A DNA stretch of 64,000 nt from positions 58,900,001 through 58,964,000 of the forward strand of contig OZ024745.1 of the NCBI GenBank assembly GCA_964016885.1. Reading direction: 5' to 3'. Below are positions 2,370 to 63,294 of the stretch, piece after piece. The notes below the pieces were generated by a model, which worked only from the letters and a program-made list of their open reading frames with translations, was not told the origin of the DNA and made no database searches. Source of the DNA: Eledone cirrhosa (taxonomy: Eukaryota). Both the position numbers and the translations under genes were made by a program. How positions within the stretch are numbered: the stretch's first letter is position 1; every line of letters begins with the position of its first letter.

Positions 2370-2438
<69 letters not shown>

Positions 2439-2544
2439 GAATTCCAACTTTGTCTGATTTACTCGTTTTATTTACAATCCTTTAACATTTATAATGGTAT
2501 TAGAATGAAATAGTATGGTAGAATATTAAATGTTAAGTGTTAAT

Positions 2545-2584
2545 TGAACAAGTACTTTCATGCTTTCGCAATCTTCAGGTTCAT
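2545..2584 (-). ncRNA. Type I hammerhead ribozyme in the 3' pLTR
   Basis: Minus strand: tgaac-CTGAAGA-ttgcgaaagcat-GAAA-gtac-TT-gttca. Confidence 0.8.
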
Positions 2585-2947
2585 AATGTGTGGTGACAGT
2601 CAAGTTTGCAATTTTCAACTGTAATGAGATGGGTAAATTTTGTGTCTTATATACAGTGAAAAGTGGCTCCCGAATGCTAAATCGTGCAAACTGTATTTCG
2701 ACCAATCGGTATGTAGTTTCACTAGATTACTAAAGCTGATTGGTTTAGGCGTCACGGTTGGTTGAGCATGTCTAACGACTACTAATTGACCCTATCCAAA
2801 GCATCAATTGTTTTGCTATTTTTAGAAATGATGAAAATAGCCTTTTCTAGTAATCATCACCATTAACATCACTTTTATTATTATTATTATTATTGTTGTT
2901 GTTGTTGTTAGTGGTCGTAGTCATAGTCATAGTAGGAGACCCCATTA

Positions 2948-3983
2948 TTATTGTTCATTTAGCTTGGGTTTGAATTTATCAATAAAATTCTTTTCTTTGA
3001 TTTTTCTCTTGATTTCAATTTGTAGAATGGGAATATTATAAATATTCCCTGACCACATGTTGCTAGATGGTTACTTAGGGGTATCTGACGGACATTTGGG
3101 TCTCTGAGTATTTAACCGCTTTTATTCCTAAATCATGTGTAATGTTGGTGTAAAGGCTTACCACATCAAAACTAAGTAGAAGTGAATTCGTTTCCATGGT
3201 TTTGGGAAGATGGGACAGGAAGTCGATATCATCCTGGATGAAACTGGGTATGTGAATACATAGTGGTTTCAAAATAATGTCAACAAAATTGCTTAGACGG
3301 TGGGTGGGGCATGTTGGACCAGCTATAATAGGTCTAAGTTTTAAGCCTTTTGGGTGTAGTACTTTAATGTACTCACTGTTTTGTTCTCTTACTGCCAGTT
3401 GGATTTCTTTTGACTTATGAACTTTCGGTAGGTCATACAGGTTGCTGGGTTTCGGCTCAAAATTGGTGATGTAGTCTCTTTCCTTATCAGTAAGTGAGTT
3501 GTGGTATTTTGAAGCCAGGTTGTTGATCTTCTTCATGATGTTGTGGTCTATATTTGACGGTATTTCATGATAGAATGTTGTGTCTTTCAGTTGTTCCTCA
3601 ACCAAATCCTTGTAGTATTCAGCATCCATTATAACAACTGCACCTCCTTTATCTGCTTGTTTAATTATTATTTTTTTTATCATTTTGTATACGTTTAAGT
3701 GCAGACATTTCTGATTTGTTAATGTTTGGCCTAACATTAGTAATATGTCTAAGAGGAAATTTAGACAGGATTTCAATGTATTGGTCGAGATAGATATTTC
3801 TTCCTTTGGCGGAGTGAAATTTGATTTATTCTTTACTAGTGATTCATCACTCTCATTACTTTTATCAGCGAAGAATTCTACAAGACATAATTTTTGACAG
3901 AATTCTTGGGTATCCTCCTTCAGTTCTTGGTGGTTGACTGTTGAAGTCGGTGTGAATTTCAGTCCTTTTGACAGAATTTGCAT
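2948..3983 (-). pseudogene. PLE reverse transcriptase remnant (frameshifted; RT core and most of GIY-YIG deleted)
   Basis: LSKGLKFTPT, IIIKQADKGGAVVIMD, LPKVHK, LRPII and SFDVVSLYTNI motifs. The sequence jumps from RT motif A to the protein C-terminus. Confidence 0.85.
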
Positions 3984-4480
3984 TTCATCATTGTCAACAT
4001 CTCTTTTGGATAAATTAATTATTTTAGGATCTACGTGTACAGTTGTTTTGGGTATGTTTCCTCCTGGAGTTTTTCTTTTTTCGGTTTTTGTTGTCCTGAC
4101 GTTAAAAAAGGGATTTTTCTCTGTTCAGGATTTATATTCCTGTTGGTGTTTGCTTGATGAACTTTTGGTCGTGATATTATATTTGGTTTCGTTATGTATT
4201 TTGTCCTATTTTTGGTATTATGTATATTATTTTTCCATTTCTTGTTAGCATTATTTTTAACAATCTGGGGAAATGACCTAGGTTTGCTTTCAGGTTTAGA
4301 TCGTTTTTTCGCCCAAAGTACTTGTTCAATTAACACTTAACATTTAATATTCTACCATACTATTTCATTATAATACCATTATAAATTATAAAGGATTGTA
4401 AATAAAACGAGTAAATCAGACAAAGTTGGAATTCCTTTTATTTATATAATCTTCTATACACAATCATACACACACGTGTA

Positions 4481-5882: not shown

Positions 5883-5934
<52 letters not shown>

Positions 5935-5938
5935 GTAT

Positions 5939-8002
5939 GTTTATTGATATTTTTTATCTGTTTGTCCCGAATCTTCCTTTATCGATTTTATATCGTATGG
6001 TTGATTGTAGACTTGTTCTATATGTGACGGTATTTTAACGATAGTTATAGCTCTGATTCATCTGAATTATTGAGCCCTCTGCCGCTCATGTCGAATCTCG
6101 TTTATCGTGAACTCGTGCGCCGATTTTTCGATACTCGATCTTTCTAATATATTTAGCTCTGGACATAGCTATCCACCAGTTAATTTTATTGCTCATTTTT
6201 TGTCGATTCTATTGAGTGATGAATAGCTTTTGTTTTATTTTAACATGTCTATTGAGCACTCTAATTCGATATGTGTATTTCCACATTCACTCGAATTGTT
6301 TTCGCGGATATAGGGGTTATCTCCCTTGTCTAATGCCATGTGCGTTTTTCACTGGTAGTTGGCTCCTCTACCGCCAGGAAAAAAGCTCGTTGAGAAAGTA
6401 AAACTCCGTTCCGCTTGCTCTAGTAGGCTTTTATATTTATATGTGAGCTGATAGAGTACAGTCTAAGGATTTACAGAAACCCATGAAGCTAGATTTAACA
6501 CCTGTCTAGTGGGTCCGGGTATGATTTTACATTCATTTAAATTATTGACGTATTGTTTTATTGATATTTTTTATCTGTTTGTCCCGAATCTTCCTTTATC
6601 GATTTTATATCGTATGGTTGATTGTAGAATTGTTCTATATGTGACGGTATTTTAACGATAGTTATAGCTCTGATTCATCTGAATTATTGAGCCCTCTGCC
6701 GCTCATGTCGAATCTCGTTTATCGTGAACTCGTGCGCCGATTTTTCGATACTCGATCTTTCTAATATATTTAGCTCTGGACATAGCTATCCACCAGTTAA
6801 TTTTATTGCTCATTTTTTGTCGATTCTATTGAGTGATGAATAGCTTTTGTTTTATTTTAACATGTCTATTGAGCACTCTAATTCGATATGTGTATTTCCA
6901 CATTCACTCGAATTGTTTTCGCGGATATAGGGGTTATCTCCCTTGTCTAATGCCATGTGCGTTTTTCACTGGTAGTTGGCTCCTCTACCGCCAGAAAAAA
7001 GCTCGTTGAGAAAGTAAAACTCCGTTCCGCTTACTCTAGTAGGCTTTTATATTTATATGTGAGCTGATAGAGTACAGTCTAAGGATTTACAGAAACCCAT
7101 GAAGCTAGATTTAACACCTGTCTAGTGGGTCCGGGTATGATTTTACATTCATTTAAATTATTGACGTATTGTTTTATTGATATTTTTTATCTGTTTGTCC
7201 CGAATCTTCCTTTATCGATTTTATATCGTATGGTTGATTGTAGACTTGTTCTATATGTGACGGTATTTTAACGATAGTTATAGCTCTGATTCATCTGAAT
7301 TATTGAGCCCTCTGCCGCTCATGTCGAATCTCGTTTATCGTGAACTCGTGCGCCGATTTTTCGATACTCGATCTTTCTAATATATTTAGCTCTGGACATA
7401 GCTATCCACCAGTTAATTTTATTGCTCATTTTTTGTCGATTCTATTGAGTGATGAATAGCTTTTGTTTTATTTTAACATGTCTATTGAGCACTCTAATTC
7501 GATATGTGTATTTCCACATTCACTCGAATTGTTTTCGCGGATATAGGGGTTATCTCCCTTGTCTAATGCCATGTGCGTTTTTCACTGGTAGTTGGCTCCT
7601 CTACCGCCAGGAAAAAAGCTCGTTGAGAAAGTAAAACTCCGTTCCGCTTGCTCTAGTAGGCTTTTATATTTATATGTGAGCTGATAGAGTACAGTCTAAG
7701 GATTTACAGAAACCCATGAAGCTAGATTTAACACCTGTCTAGTGGGTCCGGGTATGATTTTACATTCATTTAAATTATTGACGTATTGTTTTATTGATAT
7801 TTTTTATCTGTTTGTCCCGAATCTTCCTTTATCGATTTTATATCGTATGGTTGATTGTAGACTTGTTCTATATGTGACGGTATTTTAACGATAGTTATAG
7901 CTCTGATTCATCTGAATTATTGAGCCCTCTGCCGCTCATGTCGAATCTCGTTTATCGTGAACTCGTGCGCCGATTTTTCGATACTCGATCTTTCTAATAT
8001 AT
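5939..8002 (+). repeat. Tandem array of a 616-617 bp unit (about 3.3 near-identical copies), retrozyme-like
   Basis: Unit registers at 5941, 6558, 7174 and 7791. (TA)n lies on both sides. The unit has a hammerhead-like motif and many local hairpins. Confidence 0.95.
6441..6532 (+). ncRNA. Variant hammerhead-like motif (repeated at about 7057-7148 and 7674-7765)
   Basis: CTGATAGA-gtacagtctaaggatttac-aGAAA-ccca(tgaag)ctagat...gtctag-tggg-TC. Helix III is strong with a GUC triplet, but the core spacing is non-canonical and helix I is poor. Confidence 0.45.
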
Positions 8003-8460
8003 ATATATATATATAAATGTATGTATTGTATATATATATATATGGGTTGAGGAAGGCCAAGCTGTGTGCTTACTGTTAGAAGGTAAGGCGACACAAACAA
8101 GAGATGGAAAGGTTCCCTTCGTCAGCTGTTTACTACGGATCATGGATGTTTCGGCGCATTATAAACATAACATCAATCCATAGCGCGCCCATAGCCTTTT
8201 ATCTATCAAAAAGCCATGAGGAAAAGAAGTGATAGCGAAGAGAGAGAAAGAAAGAAAAAAAGGGAAGAATAAAAAAAAAAGGAAAAAACGAAGTAAACAT
8301 ACCGATAGAAGGGGGAACACAGGATAATGGCACATGTAAGCGAGTAACCGGTCTATATTTCTTTATGCTCTCGGATTAAGGTGCCTGTAACGTACAAAGC
8401 CGGGCAGATTTATATGCCAATAACTTTTTTATATGGTGCACCCTTGACTTTGTTCCTGTT

Positions 8461-8536
<76 letters not shown>

Positions 8537-8538
<2 letters not shown>

Positions 8539-8922
8539 CTAGTTGAGAGATAGAGTCCTATCGGTTGCCAGTTAATCGCTTTATCGTGTTGGTTGTCACA
8601 AACAGTCATGACCGGCACGGGCCGGTGTTTGGATTATGTCGATCGATTGGTTATTGATTGGACGATACCCGCTGATGAAGCCGCATAAGTCGATTGTGCA
8701 TTGTTGCATAATATATGCAGACAGATGGTGCAGTACACCTTACTGCTGCATTAGTGCGGCAGAAACTCGAGTCCGGGAACCTTATAGGCACCCGTTTTAC
8801 GTGTGTTGCGTTGAGGCAAATAACTATGTGTATACCCTGGTAATGTATCTTACATTGCCCATTGAGTGCGCTGATATACAACCGGTACTAGCATTGATAA
8901 ATATGGTGGGTCCGTCAACCCT

Positions 8923-8928
<6 letters not shown>
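8537..8928 (+). mobile_element. pLTR-type non-autonomous element with hammerhead and 3' tail
   Basis: Hammerhead at 8668-8777. The tail 8848-8928 recurs at about 58536-58621 (-). Microsatellite flanks. Confidence 0.7.
8668..8777 (+). ncRNA. Type I hammerhead with an extended helix II (about 83 nt)
   Basis: cccg-CTGATGA-a-gccgca...tgcggc-a-GAAA-ctcgag-TC-cggg. Confidence 0.85.
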
Positions 8929-21493: not shown

Positions 21494-21532
<39 letters not shown>

Positions 21533-21574
21533 CAATATTAAATAAATGGAAAACTATATTTATAAAACCATATT

Positions 21575-21640
21575 TATTTCATTATATATATTTCGGGGAT
21601 ATCATATTAACAATATGCTATGCCTTCATCAGACAAAATA
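21575..21640 (-). ncRNA. Type I hammerhead in the 3' pLTR
   Basis: Minus strand: tattttgt-CTGATGA-aggcatagcatattgttaatatgatatcccc-GAAA-tatata-TA-atgaaata. Confidence 0.8.
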
Positions 21641-23185
21641 CAATATAAACAGTTTTATAGATAAATATATTCGACATACCGTAATAAACATCAACTTCAT
21701 TTGAAGAGGTTCACTCTAGCAGTGAAAATACAGAGAGAAAGAAAGAGAGAGAGAAAAGAGGGAAATAAGAAAGAAAGAAAGACAAAACGAAGAAAAGGAA
21801 GAAAAAGAAGAAAAAAAAGAAGAAATGCATGGGACAAAATAGAGAGATGGAAAAATAGATAAAGCGAAGAGCTTCATGTAAAGAGACCGAAAGAGATATA
21901 TATATATATATAGAGAGAGAGAGGAAATAGAGATAGATACATATATAAATATAGATATAGAAAAATTAGGTAGTGGGAGGTCATTTTGAGTAAGTGTATC
22001 AATGATGCATTTATTTATTTATTTATTTATTTAGCTCAAGTATTAATGTAAGGGAGATATATAGAGAGACATAGAGAGATATAGAGAGAGAAAAATTTAA
22101 AAATAGCCAGACATATTCGAGGCGTAGAAAACCCTATGTTTTAATGTATTAGTATTTATAAAACTTACACTATATTGTAAATATCAGTATTCCTGAATGA
22201 AACAAGTATTCACAATGCGTGAAAATTCATTATCTTATGTTTAGTTTTTTAAAAAAAATTCATATGTCTATGTGAATCCAACTGATTCACTCCGCAAATT
22301 CAAAGTTACCGGAAAACATTCTCAATGTGGTATAAAAATTTGAGCGTATTATTATTCTTGCGATTACTCTACAAGATTATCTATCAAGCAGAAATAGAGA
22401 GCAGATTTCAATATACTAATCGAAAATATATATCATATTATAAGCAGAGATAACAATAATAATGATAATAAGTAAAAATATATAAAAATATAAAAATATA
22501 GAATAGAAAACTAAAAAAAAAGAATATTACGAAAGAATATTACATAATAAAAATATTGCATATTAAAAATACTACGTATTAAAAATATTACGTATTAAAA
22601 CTTTACATATAAAAATATTAAAAATAAAAATTTACATATAAAAATATTAAAAATAAAAAATAAAATAAAATAAAAAATAAAAATATAAAAATATTATAGA
22701 ATACTACAATACTAAAAGAATAAAAATAAAAATAAAAATAAAAATAAAAATAAAAATAAAAATAAAAATAAAAATGAAAATAAAAATAAACCACAAAGAA
22801 CAACCCTTCAAGGTTAATTGACAATATATTGCCAAGTTCACTATAAGACAAAGCCAAAAATTATCTATCAAATCACATCTAGCAAGGAATATCGCAAAAA
22901 AGATTATGATGTCCAATAATGTCTACATATGTTCCTATATTTAATATATAAGTTTATCAAGTGTAAGGTTAATTCAGAAAATTTGGAGCATCGGCTTTTA
23001 GGGTAGCTTAATTTTTCATGAGGAATGTTTAGATAAAAATAAAAATAAAAATAAAAATAAAAATAAAAATAAAAATAAATAAAATAAAATAAACAATAAA
23101 AAGAGTAAAAAGAGGGAATCAAAGATTTAGGAATCAAAAGATTTATCGGCTAGTTCTCATATAAATATAAATCAAACTAAATATA

Positions 23186-25399
23186 CTATATTTTAAATTT
23201 AAATTTATATTTAAACGTTGAGTTTAATCTATGTTTGCAACAACTGAATAAATTTGTCCGTAGGTTAAGGGAATTTTTAGATTTTAGTATAAAGAATATC
23301 TCCTCTGCGCAGAGGTCACATGTCTCAGAGGATGAATTAAAAGGAATCCCTCTTGAGACTATATTCCAAGCCGTCGAATATCTAACGTTATCTAACTTAA
23401 GTTGCCAGAGTACACCTGATAGTGCCGTTGAAGATTTTTTATTTGGATCTGTGAAAGAATTCTTGTGGTTATTATAGCGAAGTTTAAATTCCGTCGATGT
23501 GGAACCGACGTAGTTAAAAGAATTAGAGTCAGTATTAACATTACAATTGTATACTATATTTTTAACTAAGCAGTTGTTATTTAACGGACATTTAGATCTA
23601 TCTCTACAGTTACATTTGTTAACTTGTATATTATTTATGCTATTATCAGTAGGTTTTAAGTTCCTATTATTTATTCTATTAATATTTTGTGCTAAATTTT
23701 TGGTGGATGAGTAGGTTAATTTAATTGTATGCCTATTGAAGATTGAGTGGTACCTATGTGTTCCAGGGAAGCGATTATCAAGAGCTTTGAAAAATAATTT
23801 AGCGATGTGGGTTTTAATGTTTAGTGAGAAAGGGGGGGCAAACCAAATTATGTTCCTAGTTCTATTTCTTTTTTGTCCTTTGGAATTATTGTAATGCTTT
23901 CTATTATAGTTGTTAATGTTGTTGCCATAATTAAAAAAGTTGTTACTTTGTTTAGTTTGTTTATCATTATCTATGTACACAATCTTATCAGCATACCCTG
24001 CCCTAGCTAGTGCATCATTATAGTATTGGGCCTTTTCGTCAAAAATCTTTCTATTCGACGAGATCCTAGAGACACGTTTTTGGACTGAGTTTACTATAGT
24101 GTTTTTGACAGATCTGGGGTGGTTAGAGTTAAAGTTGACATAGTTTAAGTTTTCATTCAACTTGTGAAAAGGATAGTGGAGACATGTGTTGAGATTTAAT
24201 GTTATATCTAGGAAATTGACTATTCTATGGTTGTTCTCAATTTCTATTTTAAGGTTAAAGTAATTAAAAAATTTTGTAATTTGTTTACATTTTCTATTTA
24301 GTTCAGGGTTATTATTATTAATAAGTAAAAGCATGTCATCCCTATATAAACCTCCGGTAGTACCAGGTATTTTCCTATGTAGCGAATTGATTAAAAATAA
24401 GCCCACAAGGTCAGTTACTTGAGCTGAGTCGGAAGATCCCATAGTTATGTCAAAATTGCTATCTCTATCTGCTCTGGTCCATAATTTGTCATCAAATTCT
24501 ATCAAAGTTTTCCTAGCCGATAATATAATATGCATTTCTTTGCTAGTTAGGTCCGTATGTTTGAATGCGTAATTTAGTGCCTTATTTAGTAGACTAGGGG
24601 TAATAGAAGAATAATAGTTAGCTATATCAAGTTGAATAAACCTATTATTATTGTCATATTTAATTTGCCTAAACCACTCAACAACCTCTCCAGTTCCCTT
24701 CCACAAGCTCAGGTTAGATACATAATCCAAGTTCTTAATTTGCAGTATCACCCTGTCAAGAATGTTTTTGCTTAATTTGCCCAGGTCCGATTTTGAAGGT
24801 GCGATCAATCTAACTGGCAGGTCAATCTCAAAATTCCTCTTGTGGTCCTTCATATTGATCTTCGGTTTCCTGGGCACGAAAGGTTGTGTTCTGTTCTCAA
24901 TTTCCAACTCATGCATTATACAAGATGCTTCAACATTCATTTTCACAAGTTCGGTCTTATCTGCTACCTTGTATTTTTTCCTCAGCTCTTTCAGTATGAG
25001 GCCATTATACATGTCTTTCTGCACTCCATAGAGGTTCTTGGTCTTGTCAGATTTCACCAAGATCTTCTCAGTTTTCTCTAAGCTCTCAATGTTATCCTTA
25101 ATGCCTTTCAGATATTCCTGGCCTTTAAAGTTTCTCTTGAATTTGACCCCTTGTATGATAGAAATTATATCGTTTTCAAAGTCAGATAAAAGTTTGTTAG
25201 GGGGTGGATTTCTTTTAGATTTGAAAACTTTGTTTAAGTCCGAGATATTTTCGTCTGCATTAAATTTATCAAAGTGGAATGCACGCCACCTGATTCTCCT
25301 TATAAAAGAGTCAGATTTATCTATTAGTTGTTTTACAAAGTCTTTGTTTCTAGGTAGAGGTATGTCTTTTAGAGAGGAAGTAATCTTAAAGAATTCCAT
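23186..25399 (-). CDS. PLE polyprotein: reverse transcriptase plus C-terminal GIY-YIG endonuclease (737 aa)
   Basis: VKSDKT, QLDIANYYSSI, MGSSDSAQVTDLVG, LYRDD, VNFLDITL, SNHP, Cys-rich linker CNCR..CPL..C, IVY...YVGST, RYNNH, CDLC..E, LN.R. Confidence 0.95.
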   Translation of the reverse strand: MEFFKITSSLKDIPLPRNKDFVKQLIDKSDSFIRRIRWRAFHFDKFNADENISDLNKVFKSKRNPPPNKLLSDFENDIISIIQGVKFKRNFKGQEYLKGIKDNIESLEKTEKILVKSDKTKNLYGVQKDMYNGLILKELRKKYKVADKTELVKMNVEASCIMHELEIENRTQPFVPRKPKINMKDHKRNFEIDLPVRLIAPSKSDLGKLSKNILDRVILQIKNLDYVSNLSLWKGTGEVVEWFRQIKYDNNNRFIQLDIANYYSSITPSLLNKALNYAFKHTDLTSKEMHIILSARKTLIEFDDKLWTRADRDSNFDITMGSSDSAQVTDLVGLFLINSLHRKIPGTTGGLYRDDMLLLINNNNPELNRKCKQITKFFNYFNLKIEIENNHRIVNFLDITLNLNTCLHYPFHKLNENLNYVNFNSNHPRSVKNTIVNSVQKRVSRISSNRKIFDEKAQYYNDALARAGYADKIVYIDNDKQTKQSNNFFNYGNNINNYNRKHYNNSKGQKRNRTRNIIWFAPPFSLNIKTHIAKLFFKALDNRFPGTHRYHSIFNRHTIKLTYSSTKNLAQNINRINNRNLKPTDNSINNIQVNKCNCRDRSKCPLNNNCLVKNIVYNCNVNTDSNSFNYVGSTSTEFKLRYNNHKNSFTDPNKKSSTALSGVLWQLKLDNVRYSTAWNIVSRGIPFNSSSETCDLCAEEIFFILKSKNSLNLRTNLFSCCKHRLNSTFKYKFKFKI

Positions 25400-25578
25400 T
25401 TTTCAGTTATAATATAAAGCGCTCAACAGTATTGGAGCAAGATACATGTAAAGTTATATTTAAAATTGTTGGGTTACAACTAGTAAATATTTATAACTGA
25501 TATAAAAGCACTCGACAAATACTTGGAGTATATTTACAATATTAAATAAATGGAAAACTATATTTATAAAACCATATT

Positions 25579-25644
25579 TATTTCATTATATATATTTCGG
25601 GGATATCATATTAACAATATGCTATGCCTTCATCAGACAAAATA
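25579..25644 (-). ncRNA. Type I hammerhead in the 5' pLTR
   Basis: Identical to 21575-21640 and located about 180 nt upstream of the ORF start. Confidence 0.8.
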
Positions 25645-26332
25645 CAATATAAACAGTTTTATAGATAAATATATTCGACATACCGTAATAAACATCAACT
25701 TCATTTGAAGAGGTTCACTCTAGCAGTGAAAATACAGAGAGAAAGAAAGAGAGAGAGAAAAGAGGGAAATAAGAAAGAAAGAAAGACAAAACGAAGAAAA
25801 GGAAGAAAAAGAAGAAAAAAAAGAAGAAATGCATGGGACAAAATAGAGAGATGGAAAAATAGATAAAGCGAAGAGCTTCATGTAAAGAGACCGAAAGAGA
25901 TATATATATATATAGAGAGAGAGAGGAAATAGAGATAGATACATATATAAATATAGATATAGAAAAATTAGGTAGTGGGAGGTCATTTTGAGTAAGTGTA
26001 TCAATGATGCATTTATTTATTTATTTATTTATTTAGCTCAAGTATTAATGTAAGGGAGATATATAGAGAGACATAGAGAGATATAGAGAGAGAAAAATTT
26101 AAAAATAGCCAGACATATTCGAGGCGTAGAAAACCCTATGTTTTAATGTATTAGTATTTATAAAACTTACACTATATTGTAAATATCAGTATTCCTGAAT
26201 GAAACAAGTATTCACAATGCGTGAAAATTCATTATCTTATGTTTAGTTTTTTAAAAAAAATTCATATGTCTATGTGAATCCAACTGATATATATATTTAT
26301 ATATATATGTGTGTGTGTGTGTGTCTGAATTG

Positions 26333-28881: not shown

Positions 28882-29268
28882 ATAAGAAACGGAGAATCAG
28901 TGGTACGACGAATAAAATTTATTAGACATATCAATCGTTTCTCTGGCGACCAGCTCGAGGCACGATCGATGTAATGATCGAACCTGACTCTGAAATCGCA
29001 AGATCCTCAGATACTGGACATTTTGAAACTCTGCATCGTAGAATCGAGACGTATCTGAGGATCTTGCGATTTCAGAGTCAGGTTCGATCATTGCATCGAT
29101 CGTGCCTCGAGCTGGTCGCCAGAGAAACGATTGTAATATGTCTAATAAATTTTATTCGTCGCACCACTGATTCTCCGTTTCTTATGTGATATTATACTCT
29201 GCTCTGTAAGAGCATCGAGTGCTCAAACGGCCTACCGCTTACGGACGCTTTAAGCTTCCCACGACAAT
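28876..29268 (+). mobile_element. ORF-less inverted pLTR hairpin (28876-29192) plus a 3' tail
   Basis: Arms of about 138 bp, hammerhead, (TA)n flanks. Confidence 0.85.
29048..29142 (+). ncRNA. Type I hammerhead with an extended helix II (about 62 nt)
   Basis: gacgtat-CTGAGGA-tct...aga-GAAA-cgattg-TA-atatgtc. Confidence 0.85.
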
Positions 29269-29321: not shown

Positions 29322-29376
<55 letters not shown>

Positions 29377-29868
29377 TAAACAAATAATGAACAAACAATT
29401 CCTTATATTAAACAAAAAAAGTTCACTATTTAACGATCGTTTCTAGGGCATATATGTGCTATAATTGGTATGCATATTTAACAGATCTATGTACAAAATT
29501 ATACAAAATTATACAAATTATCAAGATTAAATATACATACCTAACTCATATATACGCCGTCTTCAGAAATAATGAAGTATATTTATTGATAATAACAACA
29601 ATTCAAAATATCAGTTCAAAATTGACCAATGAAAACACAAAGGGTTAAAAAGCAGTTTGGTGTGTGTATATACATGTAAAACCCTACACACATTTTACAA
29701 TAATGTGTGTATAATATGTATGTGCATACTAAAAAGATGGATGCAAATAAAAAATTTCAAGGTTAATATCTCTGTAAGCTTAATGCGCTGATAAGATACG
29801 CAATGATACTTATGTAGTCAAGCATATAAATATATTTTTTTCATACTCACACATATCAGTATAATCAC

Positions 29869-31713
29869 AAATCAGATATTGGAATAATTAGCAAAAAAAT
29901 TTTAGATAGAGTCATCCCACAAATAAGAAAATACGTTATTTTACCACTCTGGGAAAACACCTCCCAGGTAATTAATTGGTTTAAAAATATTAGGTGTAAA
30001 TCTTCTGCTTCTTTCCTACAGTTTGATATAGATAACTATTATTCTTCTATATCACCCATACTCCTGAACAAAGCATTAATATTTGCTAAAAATAGATCTA
30101 TTTTAACTTCGGATGACATTAACATTATTACACATGCTAGACAAACACTTATTGAATTTCAGAATGAATACTGGACCAGAAACACTTATAGTAATCTTTT
30201 TGATATTACTATGGGTTCAAGCGATTCTGCCCAAATTACTGATCTTGTGGGCCTCTTTCTCCTTTTCAACATAAATGCCTCTTTTCCCCACCTCAAAGGT
30301 GGTTTATATCGTGATGACTGTCTTCTTCTTTCTAACAACCTTAGCCTTTCAGAAATCGAAAAAAACAAAAAGCATATTAGAACTTTCCTTAAGGACTATT
30401 ATAATCTTAATATTACTTTTGAAAAAACAAGTAAAGTAGTAAATTTCCTAGATATAACTTTAGATTTAGCTACGGGTATATACCAACCTTACCATAAACC
30501 TAACCAAAACTTACATTACATACACTCACAATCTAATCACCCTAAATCTATCCTTAAAAACCTTGCATATAATATATCACTTAGAATTTCTAACCTTTCT
30601 TCTAACCAAGATGTATTTGATAAAAATGCGACCTTTTATAATGAAGCTCTAGATAGAAGTGGCCACAAAAATAGATTAGAGTATATAACTTCTACTAAAA
30701 ATACTGAAAACATACAGCATAATATTACCAACAAACACCAAATGAAAGGTACACACCTAAATGCCACCCACAGTATACCCCAAAATACTAAATCTTCTAA
30801 TATAAAGTATAGTAACCCTCAAAAAACTACTCATCATAAGACTATAATAAATATTAATAATAAAACTCCTAATAAAAAAGATAAAACACCTAAATCTACA
30901 AATATAACTAAAAATAGTTGTGGTGAGATCATTAACATTATTCCTCCTAGTAAAAATCATGATACAACATATAAAAATAATAAAAATAATAAACAACATA
31001 GAAACCGTAATAGACGAGTTACTTGGTATAATGCTCCTTTTAATTTACAAGTTAAGGATAATATTGCTAAAAAATTTTTTTATATCCTTGAGAAAAACTT
31101 CCCGCCAAACCACAAATACCATCAAATCTTAAATAGGTCTACAGTTAAATTCTCATATTCTACAACAAATAACATAAAACAAAATATAAGTGCATATAAT
31201 GCATATAAATGTAAGAAAACTATAAGTATACCACCAGTACATCAAATTAACAATAATATCTCCTCAAATACAGAATTAACGAAAGGATGTAACTGTAGAA
31301 ACAAAACAAACTGCCCATTAAAAGGGAATTGTCTTGTTAACAACATAGTCTATAAATGTAATGTTAAAACTAAAGATTCTATTTGCTCATATATAGGAGC
31401 TACCTCTAACAATTTTAAGACAAGGTATAATACCCACAAACATAGCTTTAAAAATGCCGCACTGGCTAATACAACATCTCTAGCAGAAAAAATCAATAGT
31501 TATAAAAATAAAAATATAAAATATGATTTGACCTGGAGTGTGCTCAAAAGAGCCACCCCTTATCAAAATAATAGAAAGGAATGTAGATTATGTTCCCAAG
31601 AACTATTTGAAATAATGAAGTCTAGGGATATCTTATTAAATAAAAGACAGGAATTAATTATATCGTGTAATCATAAACTAAAAAAAACATTTAAATATTA
31701 TAAACCTAATTAA
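29869..31713 (+). CDS. PLE RT plus GIY-YIG, 5'-truncated but uninterrupted
   Basis: The frame is open from KSDIGIISKKILDRVI through QFDIDNYYSSI, MGSSDSAQ, LYRDD, CNCR..CPL, IVY..YIG and CRLC. It is homologous to the 737-aa ORF. Confidence 0.9.
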   Translation, partial: KSDIGIISKKILDRVIPQIRKYVILPLWENTSQVINWFKNIRCKSSASFLQFDIDNYYSSISPILLNKALIFAKNRSILTSDDINIITHARQTLIEFQNEYWTRNTYSNLFDITMGSSDSAQITDLVGLFLLFNINASFPHLKGGLYRDDCLLLSNNLSLSEIEKNKKHIRTFLKDYYNLNITFEKTSKVVNFLDITLDLATGIYQPYHKPNQNLHYIHSQSNHPKSILKNLAYNISLRISNLSSNQDVFDKNATFYNEALDRSGHKNRLEYITSTKNTENIQHNITNKHQMKGTHLNATHSIPQNTKSSNIKYSNPQKTTHHKTIININNKTPNKKDKTPKSTNITKNSCGEIINIIPPSKNHDTTYKNNKNNKQHRNRNRRVTWYNAPFNLQVKDNIAKKFFYILEKNFPPNHKYHQILNRSTVKFSYSTTNNIKQNISAYNAYKCKKTISIPPVHQINNNISSNTELTKGCNCRNKTNCPLKGNCLVNNIVYKCNVKTKDSICSYIGATSNNFKTRYNTHKHSFKNAALANTTSLAEKINSYKNKNIKYDLTWSVLKRATPYQNNRKECRLCSQELFEIMKSRDILLNKRQELIISCNHKLKKTFKYYKPN

Positions 31714-33417
31714 TAACATTATTCTAGAATTTAATTTAATTTAAATGTTAGTTAACCTATAAATTTAATTTAATTAATATTTTATTACAGATGAGAAAAT
31801 ATTATGTAATCATTAATTTTGAAAAACCTTTAAATATTACTAATATATATTCAGTAATTTAATTTATAGATTAATTTTAACTTATTTTAACCTTTTATTA
31901 TAATTTTTTAATTTAGTTTAACCTTTTATTATAAAAAAAATTTTTTTTTTTTTATTATAATTCTTTTACAGATAAAATATAACAAAATAATATCATGTAT
32001 CCTATGACGGAGAAAGAATTTTTAGTATTATTGACCTAATTAATATACATTTTGGAAATATATTTATTATTTGGTTTTAGCTTTAATCAACCTAAAACTT
32101 TAATTTTAATTTTAATTTGCTTAAAATTAGTATCCTTGTACAGACGAATTGCAGAATTTCATGTAATCATAGAATGGGAGGTGTTTTTGGATATATACCT
32201 AGTTAATATATTCTGTGCAAATTTTTTGAAAAAGATATGTATATCTATATGTATATGTATATGTGTGTATTGTATGTGTATCTGTATGTATATTTATGTG
32301 ACTATATATGTATGTACGTGTGTATATATATGTATATATATATATATATATGTGTATGTATATGTATATGTATGTGTATGTGTATGTATATGTATGTGTA
32401 TGCGTATTAATTTTGATTTTTATTTGCATATAATTATATTATGCTATTGATGAAATACAATATCTGCTTTATGTATTGTATACCTAATTAACATATACTA
32501 ATTAACATATACTATTGAAATAAATATATAATTTTTAACTTAGTTTACATATAATTTATATGCTACTACCGATGTAATACTTTATTTTATTTTTATTTGG
32601 GTTTCTTTTCCCTATTATTAACTTTAATTTAGTTATAATGTAATTAATAATCTACTACTGTTTGACTTCATAATTCTGCTTCAAATATTATAAACCTAAT
32701 TAATTTACACCTTGGAAATCAATATGTTGACTATCTTTGGTTTAGTTGACATATGATTAATGGTATACTTTTTTATTTTGTGATGCATAGATTTCGTATT
32801 TCCTAGCATTGAAAATATGTAAGAACATACATTGAATTAAGATATGGAAAATATTATAGGTTTCTTGAAACATATATTTACTTTGATCCCCTTCTCCAAA
32901 CCCCCCCCCTTTCCCCCATACTATTATCATCTGTTTTTGTAAGTGTATATGTATGAATATATGGGTAGATGGGTGTCTATATAGTTTTTTTTTGGTATTT
33001 ATTTCTAGATATAAAAATACATATATGAGCATGTAAATATGAATGTAAGATTGAGTGTGTATATATGATTGTATATACATATGTATGTATATGTATGTAT
33101 ATATATGTATTATATATGTACGTGTATGTGAATGTGTGGTATATATATGTGTAGGTATATGTATATATGTGTGCGTATGTGTATGCTTGTATATAGGAAT
33201 ATATATGTGTGTATATATGTATATATGTATATGCGTGTTTGCATGTATGTGTATATGGGTTCTGTATATATTTGTATGTCTCTCTATTTATATGTTTATC
33301 TTCGTATCTATGTGATATATGTGTGTGTGTGTGCATGTATGCATATGTATGTGTTTGTGTGTGTTTGTATGTGTGTGTGTATATATATGTATGTATTTGC
33401 GCACACTCACATACACA

Positions 33418-33448
<31 letters not shown>

Positions 33449-33545
33449 GTGAGTGTGTATGTGTGTCTGTATGTGTGTGCGTGTGTATATATGTGTATAT
33501 ATATATATATATGTGTATGTATGTGTATGTGTGTGTATATAGATA

Positions 33546-33582
<37 letters not shown>

Positions 33583-33721
33583 ATATAGGTGTCTATGTGT
33601 GAATATATGTCTTTATTCGTATGTGTGTATTTATATATGTTTATATTTAGGTGTATGTATGTATGTGTATGTATGTATGTATATGTATGTGTATGTATGT
33701 ATATGTGTATATGTGTGTATA

Positions 33722-33752
<31 letters not shown>

Positions 33753-33978
33753 TATTCTTTATTATTATTATAATATAACTTATGTGTATATGTGTATAAG
33801 TGAGGTTGTGTATGTATATATACTATGTGTATATATAAGGGTAATGAAATGTATATATATATATATATATATATATATGTGCATGTCTGTATTTTATGTG
33901 TGTGTGTGTATATATATATATATGTGTATGTGTGTATATGTGTATGTATATATGCATATATGTTGTACGTGTGTGTAT

Positions 33979-34020
<42 letters not shown>

Positions 34021-34130
34021 GGATGTTTGTATGTGTTTTCATGGTGGTATGAGTGTGGGATATATATGTTTATGTATAAGTATATGTATGTGTATGTATA
34101 TATATATGAGTCTATGTGTGTGTGTGTATA

Positions 34131-34177
<47 letters not shown>

Positions 34178-34950
34178 ATGTGTGTATGTGTTGCGCGTGT
34201 GTGTGTCCGTATTTTTATCTTTTTATATGTGTATGTGTATGTTCGTGTAAATGTATGTGTGTGTAGGACAGTATAGGTATGTGTGTATGTATGTATGTGT
34301 AGATATCTCTATGTGCGCGTACATGTACGTATGTGTATGTATATCTGTATGCGTATGTACATTATATTATGTAATATATTTTATTGTTTTTATTTTTTTA
34401 TTTTTCATAATTTATAGATACATTTATATTAGGCTGTCTGGTCTGACAACCTAATACTGACCCCTCCCCCCCCCCCCCTCCCACCTAATTTCTGTATCTT
34501 GATCTTGAAAATTGTGTGTACCAGTGTGTTTATGTGAGTGACTTAATTTCTATTTGCTTATGATTTTATATCCACATATATAAATGTGAGTGGGGGGTGT
34601 GTGTGTGTTTGTGTGTTCGTGGTTATGTGTATATTTATATATATACGCACATGTATGTGTGATTATACTGATATGTGTGAGTATGAAAAAAATATATTTA
34701 TATGCTTGACTACATAAGTATCATTGCGTATCTTATCAGCGCATTAAGCTTACAGAGATATTAACCTTGAAATTTTTTATTTGCATCCATCTTTTTAGTA
34801 TGCACATACATATTATACACACATTATTGTAAAATGTGTGTAGGGTTTTACATGTATATACACACACCAAACTGCTTTTTAACCCTTTGTGTTTTCATTG
34901 GTCAATTTTGAACTGATATTTTGAATTGTTGTTATTATCAATAAATATAC

Positions 34951-35105
34951 TTCATTATTTCTGAAGACGGCGTATATATGAGTTAGGTATGTATATTTAA
35001 TCTTGATAATTTGTATAATTTTGTATAATTTTGTACATAGATCTGTTAAATATGCATACCAATTATAGCACATATATGCCCTAGAAACGATCGTTAAATA
35101 GTGAA
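34951..35105 (+). ncRNA. Type I hammerhead with a 116-nt helix II (mirror copy on - at 29422-29576)
   Basis: ttcattattt-CTGAAGA-c-ggcgtatat..ggtatgtatatttaa...ttaaatatgcatacc..atatatgcc-cta-GAAA-cgatcg-TT-aaatagtgaa. Confidence 0.85.
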
Positions 35106-35290
35106 CTTTTTTTGTTTAATATAAGGAATTGTTTGTTCATTATTTGTTTAATATTTTATCTTGACTCTGTATACCGTTTATCTTTCACCGAAATTGGATT
35201 TTCATTACATCTCTTCTTTCCATGATATCCGGAATACATTGAGTTCTTCATACGGATTGGACACTACCGTAAACTCTTGGTAGATTTATC

Positions 35291-40480: not shown

Positions 40481-41042
<562 letters not shown>

Positions 41043-41062
41043 CTCTCTATATATATATATAT

Positions 41063-41679
41063 AGTTTTAATATAGATGAGATTCTACAGGACTAGAACTG
41101 TTTCATTCTTTAGAAATCATCAGGAATCTGGGTATCAAAAAATAAATATGGTATTTATAGGTTTCTTCAGGTGGTAGGAGAGGGTAGGGAGTGGGATGGG
41201 TGTAGGTCATTGGTTGATAGAAAAGGGAATTCATTAAAAGCTAATTCTTCAAAGCTATAGTTTATATTTAGAGTAACAAAGGCAGAAAGAATTCTATAAA
41301 CAAGTTCAGAATGGGGTGCCACTCCTTATTATTGAGAAACTTAAAAATAAGGAGTGGCATCCCATTCTGAACTTGTTTATAGAATTCTTTCTGCCTTTGT
41401 TACTCTAAATATAAACTATAGCTTTGAAGAATTAGCTTTTAATGAATTCCCTTTTCTATCAACCAATGACCTACACCCATCCCACTCCCCACCCTCTCCT
41501 ACCACCTGAAGAGACCTATAAATACCATACTTACTTTTTGATACCCAGATTCCTGATGATTTCTAAAGAATGAAACAGTTCTAGTCCTGTAGAATCTCAT
41601 CTATATTAAAACTTTTATACTCTGCAATGTATTGAGTTCCTTACTTACTGTGGTTACCTCCGATTCAACCCGGAATAAC

Positions 41680-45942: not shown

Positions 45943-46187
45943 TGGTGTTTGATTTAAGGGAGATTTTATCAACTATTTCTAGTAAATCTAGTGACAACGT
46001 AGAAGAACCCTTACTTAATATGAATACCGATAGGTGTTCAGAAAGAAATGAAGGATATCTATCTGTATGTATATCTATCTATCTATCTATCTATCACGTT
46101 TTCATTGTATGTAAACTTCCCCCTTTGTATTTGTCCCCTTCTTTTGTGCCCATGTGGCTAATAAAGAAACATATCTATCTATCTATC

Positions 46188-50011
<3,824 letters not shown>

Positions 50012-63243: not shown

Positions 63244-63294
63244 TTTTGTTATACATATTTCGGATGTACAATAGTACGTCCTCATCAGACAAAA
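63244..63294 (-). ncRNA. Type I hammerhead in an inverted pLTR
   Basis: Minus strand: ttttgt-CTGATGA-ggacgtactattgtacatcc-GAAA-tatgta-TA-acaaaa. Confidence 0.88.

Follow-up and report, generated by a model that had tools for sequence, protein, structure and literature searches.

The window analysed here, a 64,000-nt stretch of DNA on contig C5 of a 3.0-Gb animal genome, contains an insertion of 3.3 tandem units of 616-617 bp each on the forward strand (5940-7997), truncated at its 5′ end and fixed at its 3′ end. Three full units, namely 5940-6556 (617 bp), 6557-7172 (616 bp) and 7173-7789 (617 bp), are followed by a partial unit of 208-213 nt; the 3′ end falls at unit position 208-213 (7997-8002), where the TA repeat makes the exact boundary ambiguous. 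No difference was found between units 1 and 3, while unit 2 differs at three sites, one of which carries an allele that is common in other subfamilies. The longest ATG frame in the array is 60 aa; there is no long ORF and the array is non-coding. Thus, the original prediction of about 3.3 nearly identical non-coding 617-bp units set in (TA)n describes a real structure. What it lacked is a 27-bp target-site duplication on the forward strand, (TA)9AATGTATGT, whose left copy lies at 5914-5940 and right copy at 7998-8024, with the array embedded in (TA)n. If the ambiguous TATAT is assigned to the element, the array ends 3 nt before GCTC at unit position 217 (6156), as had been proposed.

Tandem non-coding units of a few hundred bases without LTR architecture are the form taken by metazoan non-LTR retrozymes, and the array has this form. 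The remark that retrozymes are usually shorter fits the 170-400 nt of Cervera 2020 (PMC7229834); the unit nevertheless falls within the 51-972 bp given in the available text of Li et al. 2026 (10.64898/2026.07.22.740005), and its size is therefore not new. Self-cleavage at the predicted sites described below would release forward-strand monomer RNAs of 616 nt (6516-7131) and 617 nt (7132-7748), whose circular form is likewise a prediction; the computed fold of the monomer has a z of -1.6 against dinucleotide shuffles. The unit contains no Pol III A or B box.

Several Penelope-like elements lie outside the array. A Hydra-type element on the reverse strand (21525-26290) has 762-bp pLTRs, which carry a CUGAUGA..GAAA hammerhead, and a 738-aa ORF at 23186-25402, and is a candidate source of enzyme. 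It belongs to a young family with many 99%-identical copies in which the 738-aa frame is intact. The Hydra label was assigned by comparing the motifs RWR, DKT and CxCx5C with the description in Craig et al., and Pfam returned nothing informative for the three Penelope ORFs. A second Hydra-type element (29368-35159) has a 627-aa frame on the forward strand, with 42-48% identity to the first element where the two align, and 505-bp inverted ends. A truncated Neptune-like Penelope element with inverted ends lies on the reverse strand at 2435-4437 and includes a hammerhead-like motif at 2578-2550. At 8537-8925 (forward strand) is a TA-flanked non-coding element with a hammerhead that has a large helix II, CUGAUGA at 8672, GUC at 8771-8773 and A-A at 10.1/11.1; the 5′ strand of its helix I happens to complement the conserved CGGGUAU 3′ of the cut in the 617-nt unit. 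Six other places (1413-1443, 2146-2265, 29055-29135, 40715-41591, 49604-49675 and 63250-63288) have hammerhead motifs that belong to other families; several of these are inverted pairs, and many have a U-U, C-A or A-A mismatch at 10.1/11.1. Frameshifted fragments of a non-LTR retrotransposon are found at 46115-49221 on the forward strand, with motifs that we take to be endonuclease- and reverse-transcriptase-like.

Each unit of the array carries a hammerhead-like fold. In the first copy (6441-6532, forward strand), the core CUGAUAGA is at 6448-6455, a weak helix II at 6456-6474, A-GAAA at 6475-6479 and helix III at 6479-6514, while in the further copies the core is at 7064 and 7681. The predicted GUC cleavage triplet is at 6513-6515, with the cut between 6515 and 6516, and its copies are at 7129-7131 and 7746-7748. 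All three elements of the motif as first described (CUGAUAGA, AGAAA and GUC) are where they had been placed, and helix III is real (z -2.6, mononucleotide shuffles), with the correction that its distal part is GCUAGA/UCUAG(U/C) behind a 5-nt bulge. A second possible triplet, GUA at 6519-6521 on the same strand, which had been missed, uses a second GGGU as the 3′ strand of helix III, and this variant has the lower computed fold energy (-9.3 vs. -7.2 kcal/mol for GUC).

Compared with a type I hammerhead, the unit has GAAA, an NUH triplet (two possible ones) and helix III, the last made of 4 bp, the 5-nt bulge and 6 bp, with a common inherited change from G-U to G-C. It departs from the CUGANGA core, as its consensus C-U-G-A-U-[A/G/U]-G-A has two bases between A6 and G8, i.e. 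at N7, the second of them variable. Helix I is also not continuous next to C3 and the cut: it consists of 1 bp, then a bulge of 10 nt (GUC) or 4 nt (GUA), then 6 bp. Searches of the unit against Rfam gave no hammerhead match even at E≤10, the whole window gave no ribozyme match, and a permuted hammerhead arrangement that would repair helix I was sought by eye with none found. Thus, the unit has no canonical or minimal type I hammerhead; each unit has instead a conserved hammerhead-like variant, and for this reason we class the element as a variant that works like a retrozyme.

The conservation is marked. Inherited changes, defined as changes common to at least 4 loci, occur at 149 of the 617 positions of the unit but at 0 of the 22 that make up the core and helix III (P 0.002). 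In helix II, three inherited changes keep the pairs, and two others, T>G at 6457 and A>T at 6460, disrupt pairing. Outside this organism, a related contig carries 6512 G>T, by which a pair of helix III is lost. By computation, the fold that forms the hammerhead is about 10-23 kcal/mol less stable than the minimum-energy structure. The A in front of GAAA is not as unusual as it seems, because 10.1-11.1 mismatches are also frequent in other hammerheads of this genome. Such mismatches, the insertion after A6 and a weak helix II are each known from natural hammerhead variants in the available text of Perreault 2011 (PMC3088659) and Eckert 2023 (PMC10085705), the first of which gives low activity for a tested variant with an insertion after A6. 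The N7 insertion combined with a helix I of 1 bp and a 10-nt bulge was not found in the available parts of these two papers; the supplements of Craig 2021 and Li 2026 may hold similar variants. The other hammerhead types from the DNA examined here all have a one-base N7, in a scan that required a helix I of at least 5 bp. According to the part of the literature at hand, 8 of 9 predicted Xenopus retrozymes gave no cleavage in vitro. Self-cleavage of tandem transcripts after GUC is a prediction that we consider likely to hold, and protein-assisted cutting, by analogy with Poseidon, may reconcile the deviant fold with activity. It should be noted that run X2 gives a summed contig depth of 20,000-95,000 over 6420-6570, with extra variation at 6521-6524; this was not used as RNA evidence.

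Unit copies 98-100% identical to those in the window occur on many contigs of the genome. An exact match to the 3′ junction was found 747 times (0 for the reversed control), and the hammerhead core pattern matched 2625 times, compared to 15 for its control. The tandem joint is also present in contigs from three independent public runs. Among the 40 top-scoring arrays, which were selected by score and excluded from statistics, nearly all have their 3′ end at unit position 208-213, with TA next to it, and their 5′ ends vary; subfamilies only 81-95% identical to the window unit share this 3′ end. The 617-base unit is a young, protein-free mobile element with at least 747 insertions at TA-repeat sites and one fixed end. 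The genome search therefore agrees with the dispersed arrays of fixed 3′ and variable 5′ ends that had been anticipated, as in other retrozymes, and did not yield a single-locus repeat, the outcome named beforehand as counter-evidence. Satellite DNA would be expected as a small number of long arrays whose ends fall in any phase. What we observe is 747 dispersed junctions in one phase, 5′ truncation, a target-site duplication in the window and two-armed copies, in line with the earlier view that the array is not a satellite. Its tandem units are nearly identical, as in a satellite or an assembly artefact; given these junctions and the joint recovered in three independent runs, we attach almost no weight to either explanation. 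Across loci, target-site duplications number 17 of 162, which does not stand out clearly from chance (shuffled mean of 10.3 and maximum of 16).

The ends of the insertions point to the enzyme that made them. The main start of reverse transcription, defined by the 747 exact junctions, is at unit position 208-213, with a hairpin UAGCU-8nt-AGCUA and GCTC just downstream (6147-6171, forward strand). A second end, at unit position ~104, was found at 15 sites, and 5 of the 6 examined are head-to-head two-armed insertions; two two-armed insertions have both inner ends at 591-598. This minor, second-arm start is about 6 nt upstream of a bulged hairpin, GCTC..TT-GAGC (6050-6075, forward strand). The two ends thus lie 3-6 nt before GCTC hairpins and are ~105 nt apart, and the pattern RCTC..TTGAGY occurs twice per unit (P 0.002, 2000 mononucleotide shuffles). 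Of the bulged hairpins proposed earlier, the one at 6050-6075 is stable by itself (z -3.8), while those at 6191-6217, 6226-6260 and 6156-6180 are weak (z -1.0, -0.3 and -0.3, respectively). The signature of Penelope elements, as described in the available text of PMC8557442 and PMC11167929, combines a start at a fixed internal position with 5′ truncation, a second start and inverted arms. The insertions here have a fixed internal 3′ start, 5′ truncation, an inverted second arm and a microsatellite target, and because their ends match this signature we read the element as likely mobilized by a Penelope-type enzyme.

The 5′ ends were analyzed in two samples, neither of which was selected by length: 83 consecutive junctions on contig C1 (sample 1) and 40 consecutive junctions of the youngest subfamily (sample 2). 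After 7 of these 123 insertions were dropped because fetch limits or gaps censored their 5′ ends, 116 uncensored insertions remained. Counting all passes, 19 of them have a 5′ end at unit position 577-600, the 24 nt directly behind the predicted GUC cut, compared to 4.5 expected (P 1e-7). The excess is seen in sample 1 (14/79 vs. 3.1 expected, P 2e-6) and again in sample 2 (5/37 vs. 1.4 expected, P 0.014), with 3/116 in the 24 nt before this interval and 0/116 in the 17 nt after it. Weighting by TA microhomology gives an expectation of 2.5 against 14 of 69 observed, and microhomology thus leaves the pile-up unexplained. Copying from the 3′ start back to the GUC cut would span 249 nt, and the 83 insertions of sample 1 include 11 with lengths of 226-245 nt, 0 of 202-225 nt and 1 of 250-273 nt. 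A second cluster of 5′ ends, at unit positions 88-120 (6027-6059), lies beside the minor start hairpin (14/116 vs. 6.2 expected); it was found in sample 1 (12/79) and was not replicated in sample 2 (2/37).

Junctions at base resolution bear on which triplet would be cut. Our count of distinct sites genome-wide gave 32 TA-flanked junctions in unit positions 575-584: 2 are exactly at C577 and 0 at 575, 576, 578 or 579; the first TAT (581-583) accounts for 25, position 584 for 3 and position 580 possibly for 2. One further locus (L073) also starts at 577, making three junctions exactly there. If the RNA is cut after GUC and the end is trimmed to the nearest TA, all of these ends are accounted for. 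The GUA cut is matched by one exact junction at unit position 583 (L260) and does not account for the 577 ends, and we consider GUC the more likely of the two. The position of these ends, as recorded in genomic DNA, supports a 5′ end of the element RNA at the predicted GUC site.

How the template is read was examined in 27 long young arrays with 298 monomers, up to 20 or more in each; when long arrays were looked for with a query of several units, 2 candidates scored. Fourteen arrays are wholly identical internally and there are 13 distinct consensuses. The units of one array have the same subfamily variants and the same variants specific to that array, and divergence between arrays reaches 4-5%. 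Substitutions confined to single units amount to 6.5e-5 per base, in keeping with the published measurements of reverse transcriptases copying circles (5.7e-5 to 2.2e-4; PMC11331410). The cut junction shows no untemplated or lost bases in any of the 298 monomers. Stops at the cut are much more common in the first pass (14/111) than in later passes (5/375; P 2e-6), and the contrast holds in the first sample without the youngest subfamily (P 0.008), which rejects one uniform, partly cut linear template. An earlier reading, in which stops at the cut were absent from the youngest subfamily (0/14), was dropped as the second sample gave 5/37. The homogeneity of the arrays and the scarcity of later stops fit rolling-circle reverse transcription of one RNA circle, and judged by these genomic patterns a circular RNA was quite probably the copying template.

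Two of the 27 arrays show a further pattern. L138 has 13 units that are otherwise near-identical, yet a single site shows four different readings among them; in L077, a single G appears as T in 5 of 13 units. These variants are neither clustered nor present in the other 25 arrays. Miscoding by 8-oxoG would be one possible source of such misreading. The two patterns are suggestive of one damaged base in an RNA template being read repeatedly, and assembly error may also account for them; none of the 14 arrays added to test the pattern has it, and both lesion-like arrays hint at three-unit blocks. Scars of A-to-I editing were not seen, with A>G at 0.132 and T>C at 0.138 per base.

The main alternative does without a circle: a Penelope enzyme would copy cut monomers and uncut multimers, and arrays would lengthen later in DNA by unequal exchange or slippage. 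In its favour, the main in vitro substrate of Poseidon is unprocessed RNA, according to the available text of PMC11167929, the youngest subfamily combines the longest arrays with a change that weakens helix II, and adjacent units in two arrays (L055 and L043) share variants, which fits copying at the DNA level. Later growth in DNA is at odds with the age of the arrays, however, as array length is greatest in the youngest, and none of the 22 loci of older subfamilies that were examined (short flanks fetched, both ends visible) exceeds 3.3 units. Moreover, arrays cannot gain length by the copying of linear templates, yet each of 13 different haplotypes is uniform throughout long arrays, and the three different mutant readings of one L138 site are hard to obtain by duplication. 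We therefore regard this alternative as unlikely. Multimers could also arise by template jumping between cut linear monomers. A chimera in which a unit is joined directly to a Neptune-like 3′ end (L063/L067) and the foreign allele in unit 2 of the window, one of its three differences, are the kind of trace that jumping would leave, whereas one haplotype running throughout each array, with arrays 4-5% apart at most, and a cut junction intact in 298 monomers are not; this route is very improbable.

The ribozyme may instead be dead or incidental, the 5′ end at ~577-583 being a transcription start or a host-nuclease cut of a SINE-like Penelope parasite. The exact C577 junctions lack an extra G, which the cap is expected to leave at such junctions by LINE biology. 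There is no Pol III A or B box to go with a SINE-like origin, the core is free of inherited change, and long arrays rarely end at the cut. The non-canonical core and helix I and the unfavourable computed fold do speak for such an explanation, as do the promoters carried by Penelope pLTRs (cited in PMC8557442, as far as its available text goes). On balance, we consider a dead ribozyme decidedly unlikely.

A partner for the element was sought by similarity and by position. The window's Hydra-type element at 21525-26290 resembles it in that each of its two fixed ends is closely followed by an RCTC hairpin, at a distance of 1-3 nt in one case and 4-9 nt in the other, with the hairpins ~90 nt apart. 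A start hairpin in common, as proposed earlier, was checked in this one Hydra family. The second end is heavily used in that family (807 forward-strand matches). The unit has no similarity to 44 Hydra and Neptune loci or to the window's three Penelope elements (best match 22 nt, E 0.03), and thus does not resemble a partner pLTR among those loci, as a non-autonomous derivative would. The 22-nt match, to the Neptune ORF at 3544-3565, was treated as chance. Adjacency does not single out a partner, since many TA-targeting families flank both sides (after 7 loci without a matched junction were dropped); Neptune-like family X, for example, is 5′ of the unit in 4 loci and 3′ in 1. The chimera (L063:4245-4497, also in L162, with L063 and L067 counted as one event) has the unit joined, with no TA spacer in between, to the 3′ terminus of a Neptune-like family that is young and has 282 candidates; it may be a template switch, seen in one event. 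Our best guess for the partner, with a slight preference, is a Hydra-clade enzyme.

In support of the interpretation first proposed, we think it probable that this is a retrozyme-like element with a predicted GUC self-cut and likely circles that borrows a Penelope-type reverse transcriptase, likely of the Hydra clade. Its cycle would begin with tandem transcripts, from a presumed promoter, that cut themselves after GUC. Part of the monomers would be ligated into circles, presumably by a host ligase as in Cervera 2020. After nicking (TA)n, the enzyme would begin copying at an internal position of the RNA, a few bases before the small GCTC hairpin (unit 208-213). With a linear cut monomer, the template would be exhausted within 249 nt, which would produce the insertions of 226-245 bp, and a circle could be copied for up to 20 or more turns, giving long homogeneous arrays. 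A rare second start 105 nt upstream (15 sites) would add a mirror-image second arm. A bolder and doubtful extension is that this hammerhead is active in vivo even though it lacks a continuous helix I, probably requiring the parasitised Penelope protein to bind it, and that the arrays are natural rolling-circle reads that record germ-line reverse transcription errors (~6e-5 per base) as well as damaged template bases. If the protein-dependent reading is true, cutting, circle formation and copying would be coupled.

The closest known systems are the metazoan non-LTR retrozymes (Cervera 2020, PMC7229834; Li 2026, 10.64898/2026.07.22.740005), which, as far as the available text of these papers goes, are alike in their dispersed tandem non-coding units, low GC and type-I-like hammerhead. 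The class itself has already been published. The element appears to work like these retrozymes with a deviant hammerhead: it differs in that the hammerhead fails canonical and minimal patterns, so that descriptor searches would miss it, and in the lack of similarity to the pLTRs tested. Copying of circles by Penelope enzymes was proposed for retrozymes in both papers, whose available parts state it as a hypothesis, and our literature search found no demonstration of it; here, the genome provides evidence for both the cut and rolling-circle copying, in the ends of the insertions and in the variation inside arrays. Hydra-clade elements (Craig 2021, PMC8557442, available text) share the (TA)n target, fixed 3′ end, 5′ truncation and inverted second arm, and the one in the window also has two starts, each just before an RCTC hairpin. 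In contrast, the present element has no ORF and is nearly always one-armed (15 second-end sites vs. 747), and Hydra hammerheads are reported there as canonical. Poseidon of Anolis (Frangieh 2024, PMC11167929), again from the available text, similarly has two internal RNA starts that define the genomic tail and an AT-rich target, and its hammerhead cuts only with protein help. However, Poseidon is autonomous and uses uncut RNA in vitro with no reads ending at the cut, whereas cut ends appear to be recorded in the insertions of the element described here.

The element family thus offers quantitative genomic footprints of the cut site, of the start site and of the repeated reading of one molecule. 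With an intact, young candidate enzyme in the same window, the cycle could be rebuilt in vitro. If the deviant hammerhead does cut, current ribozyme descriptors would be too narrow and retrozyme counts too low.
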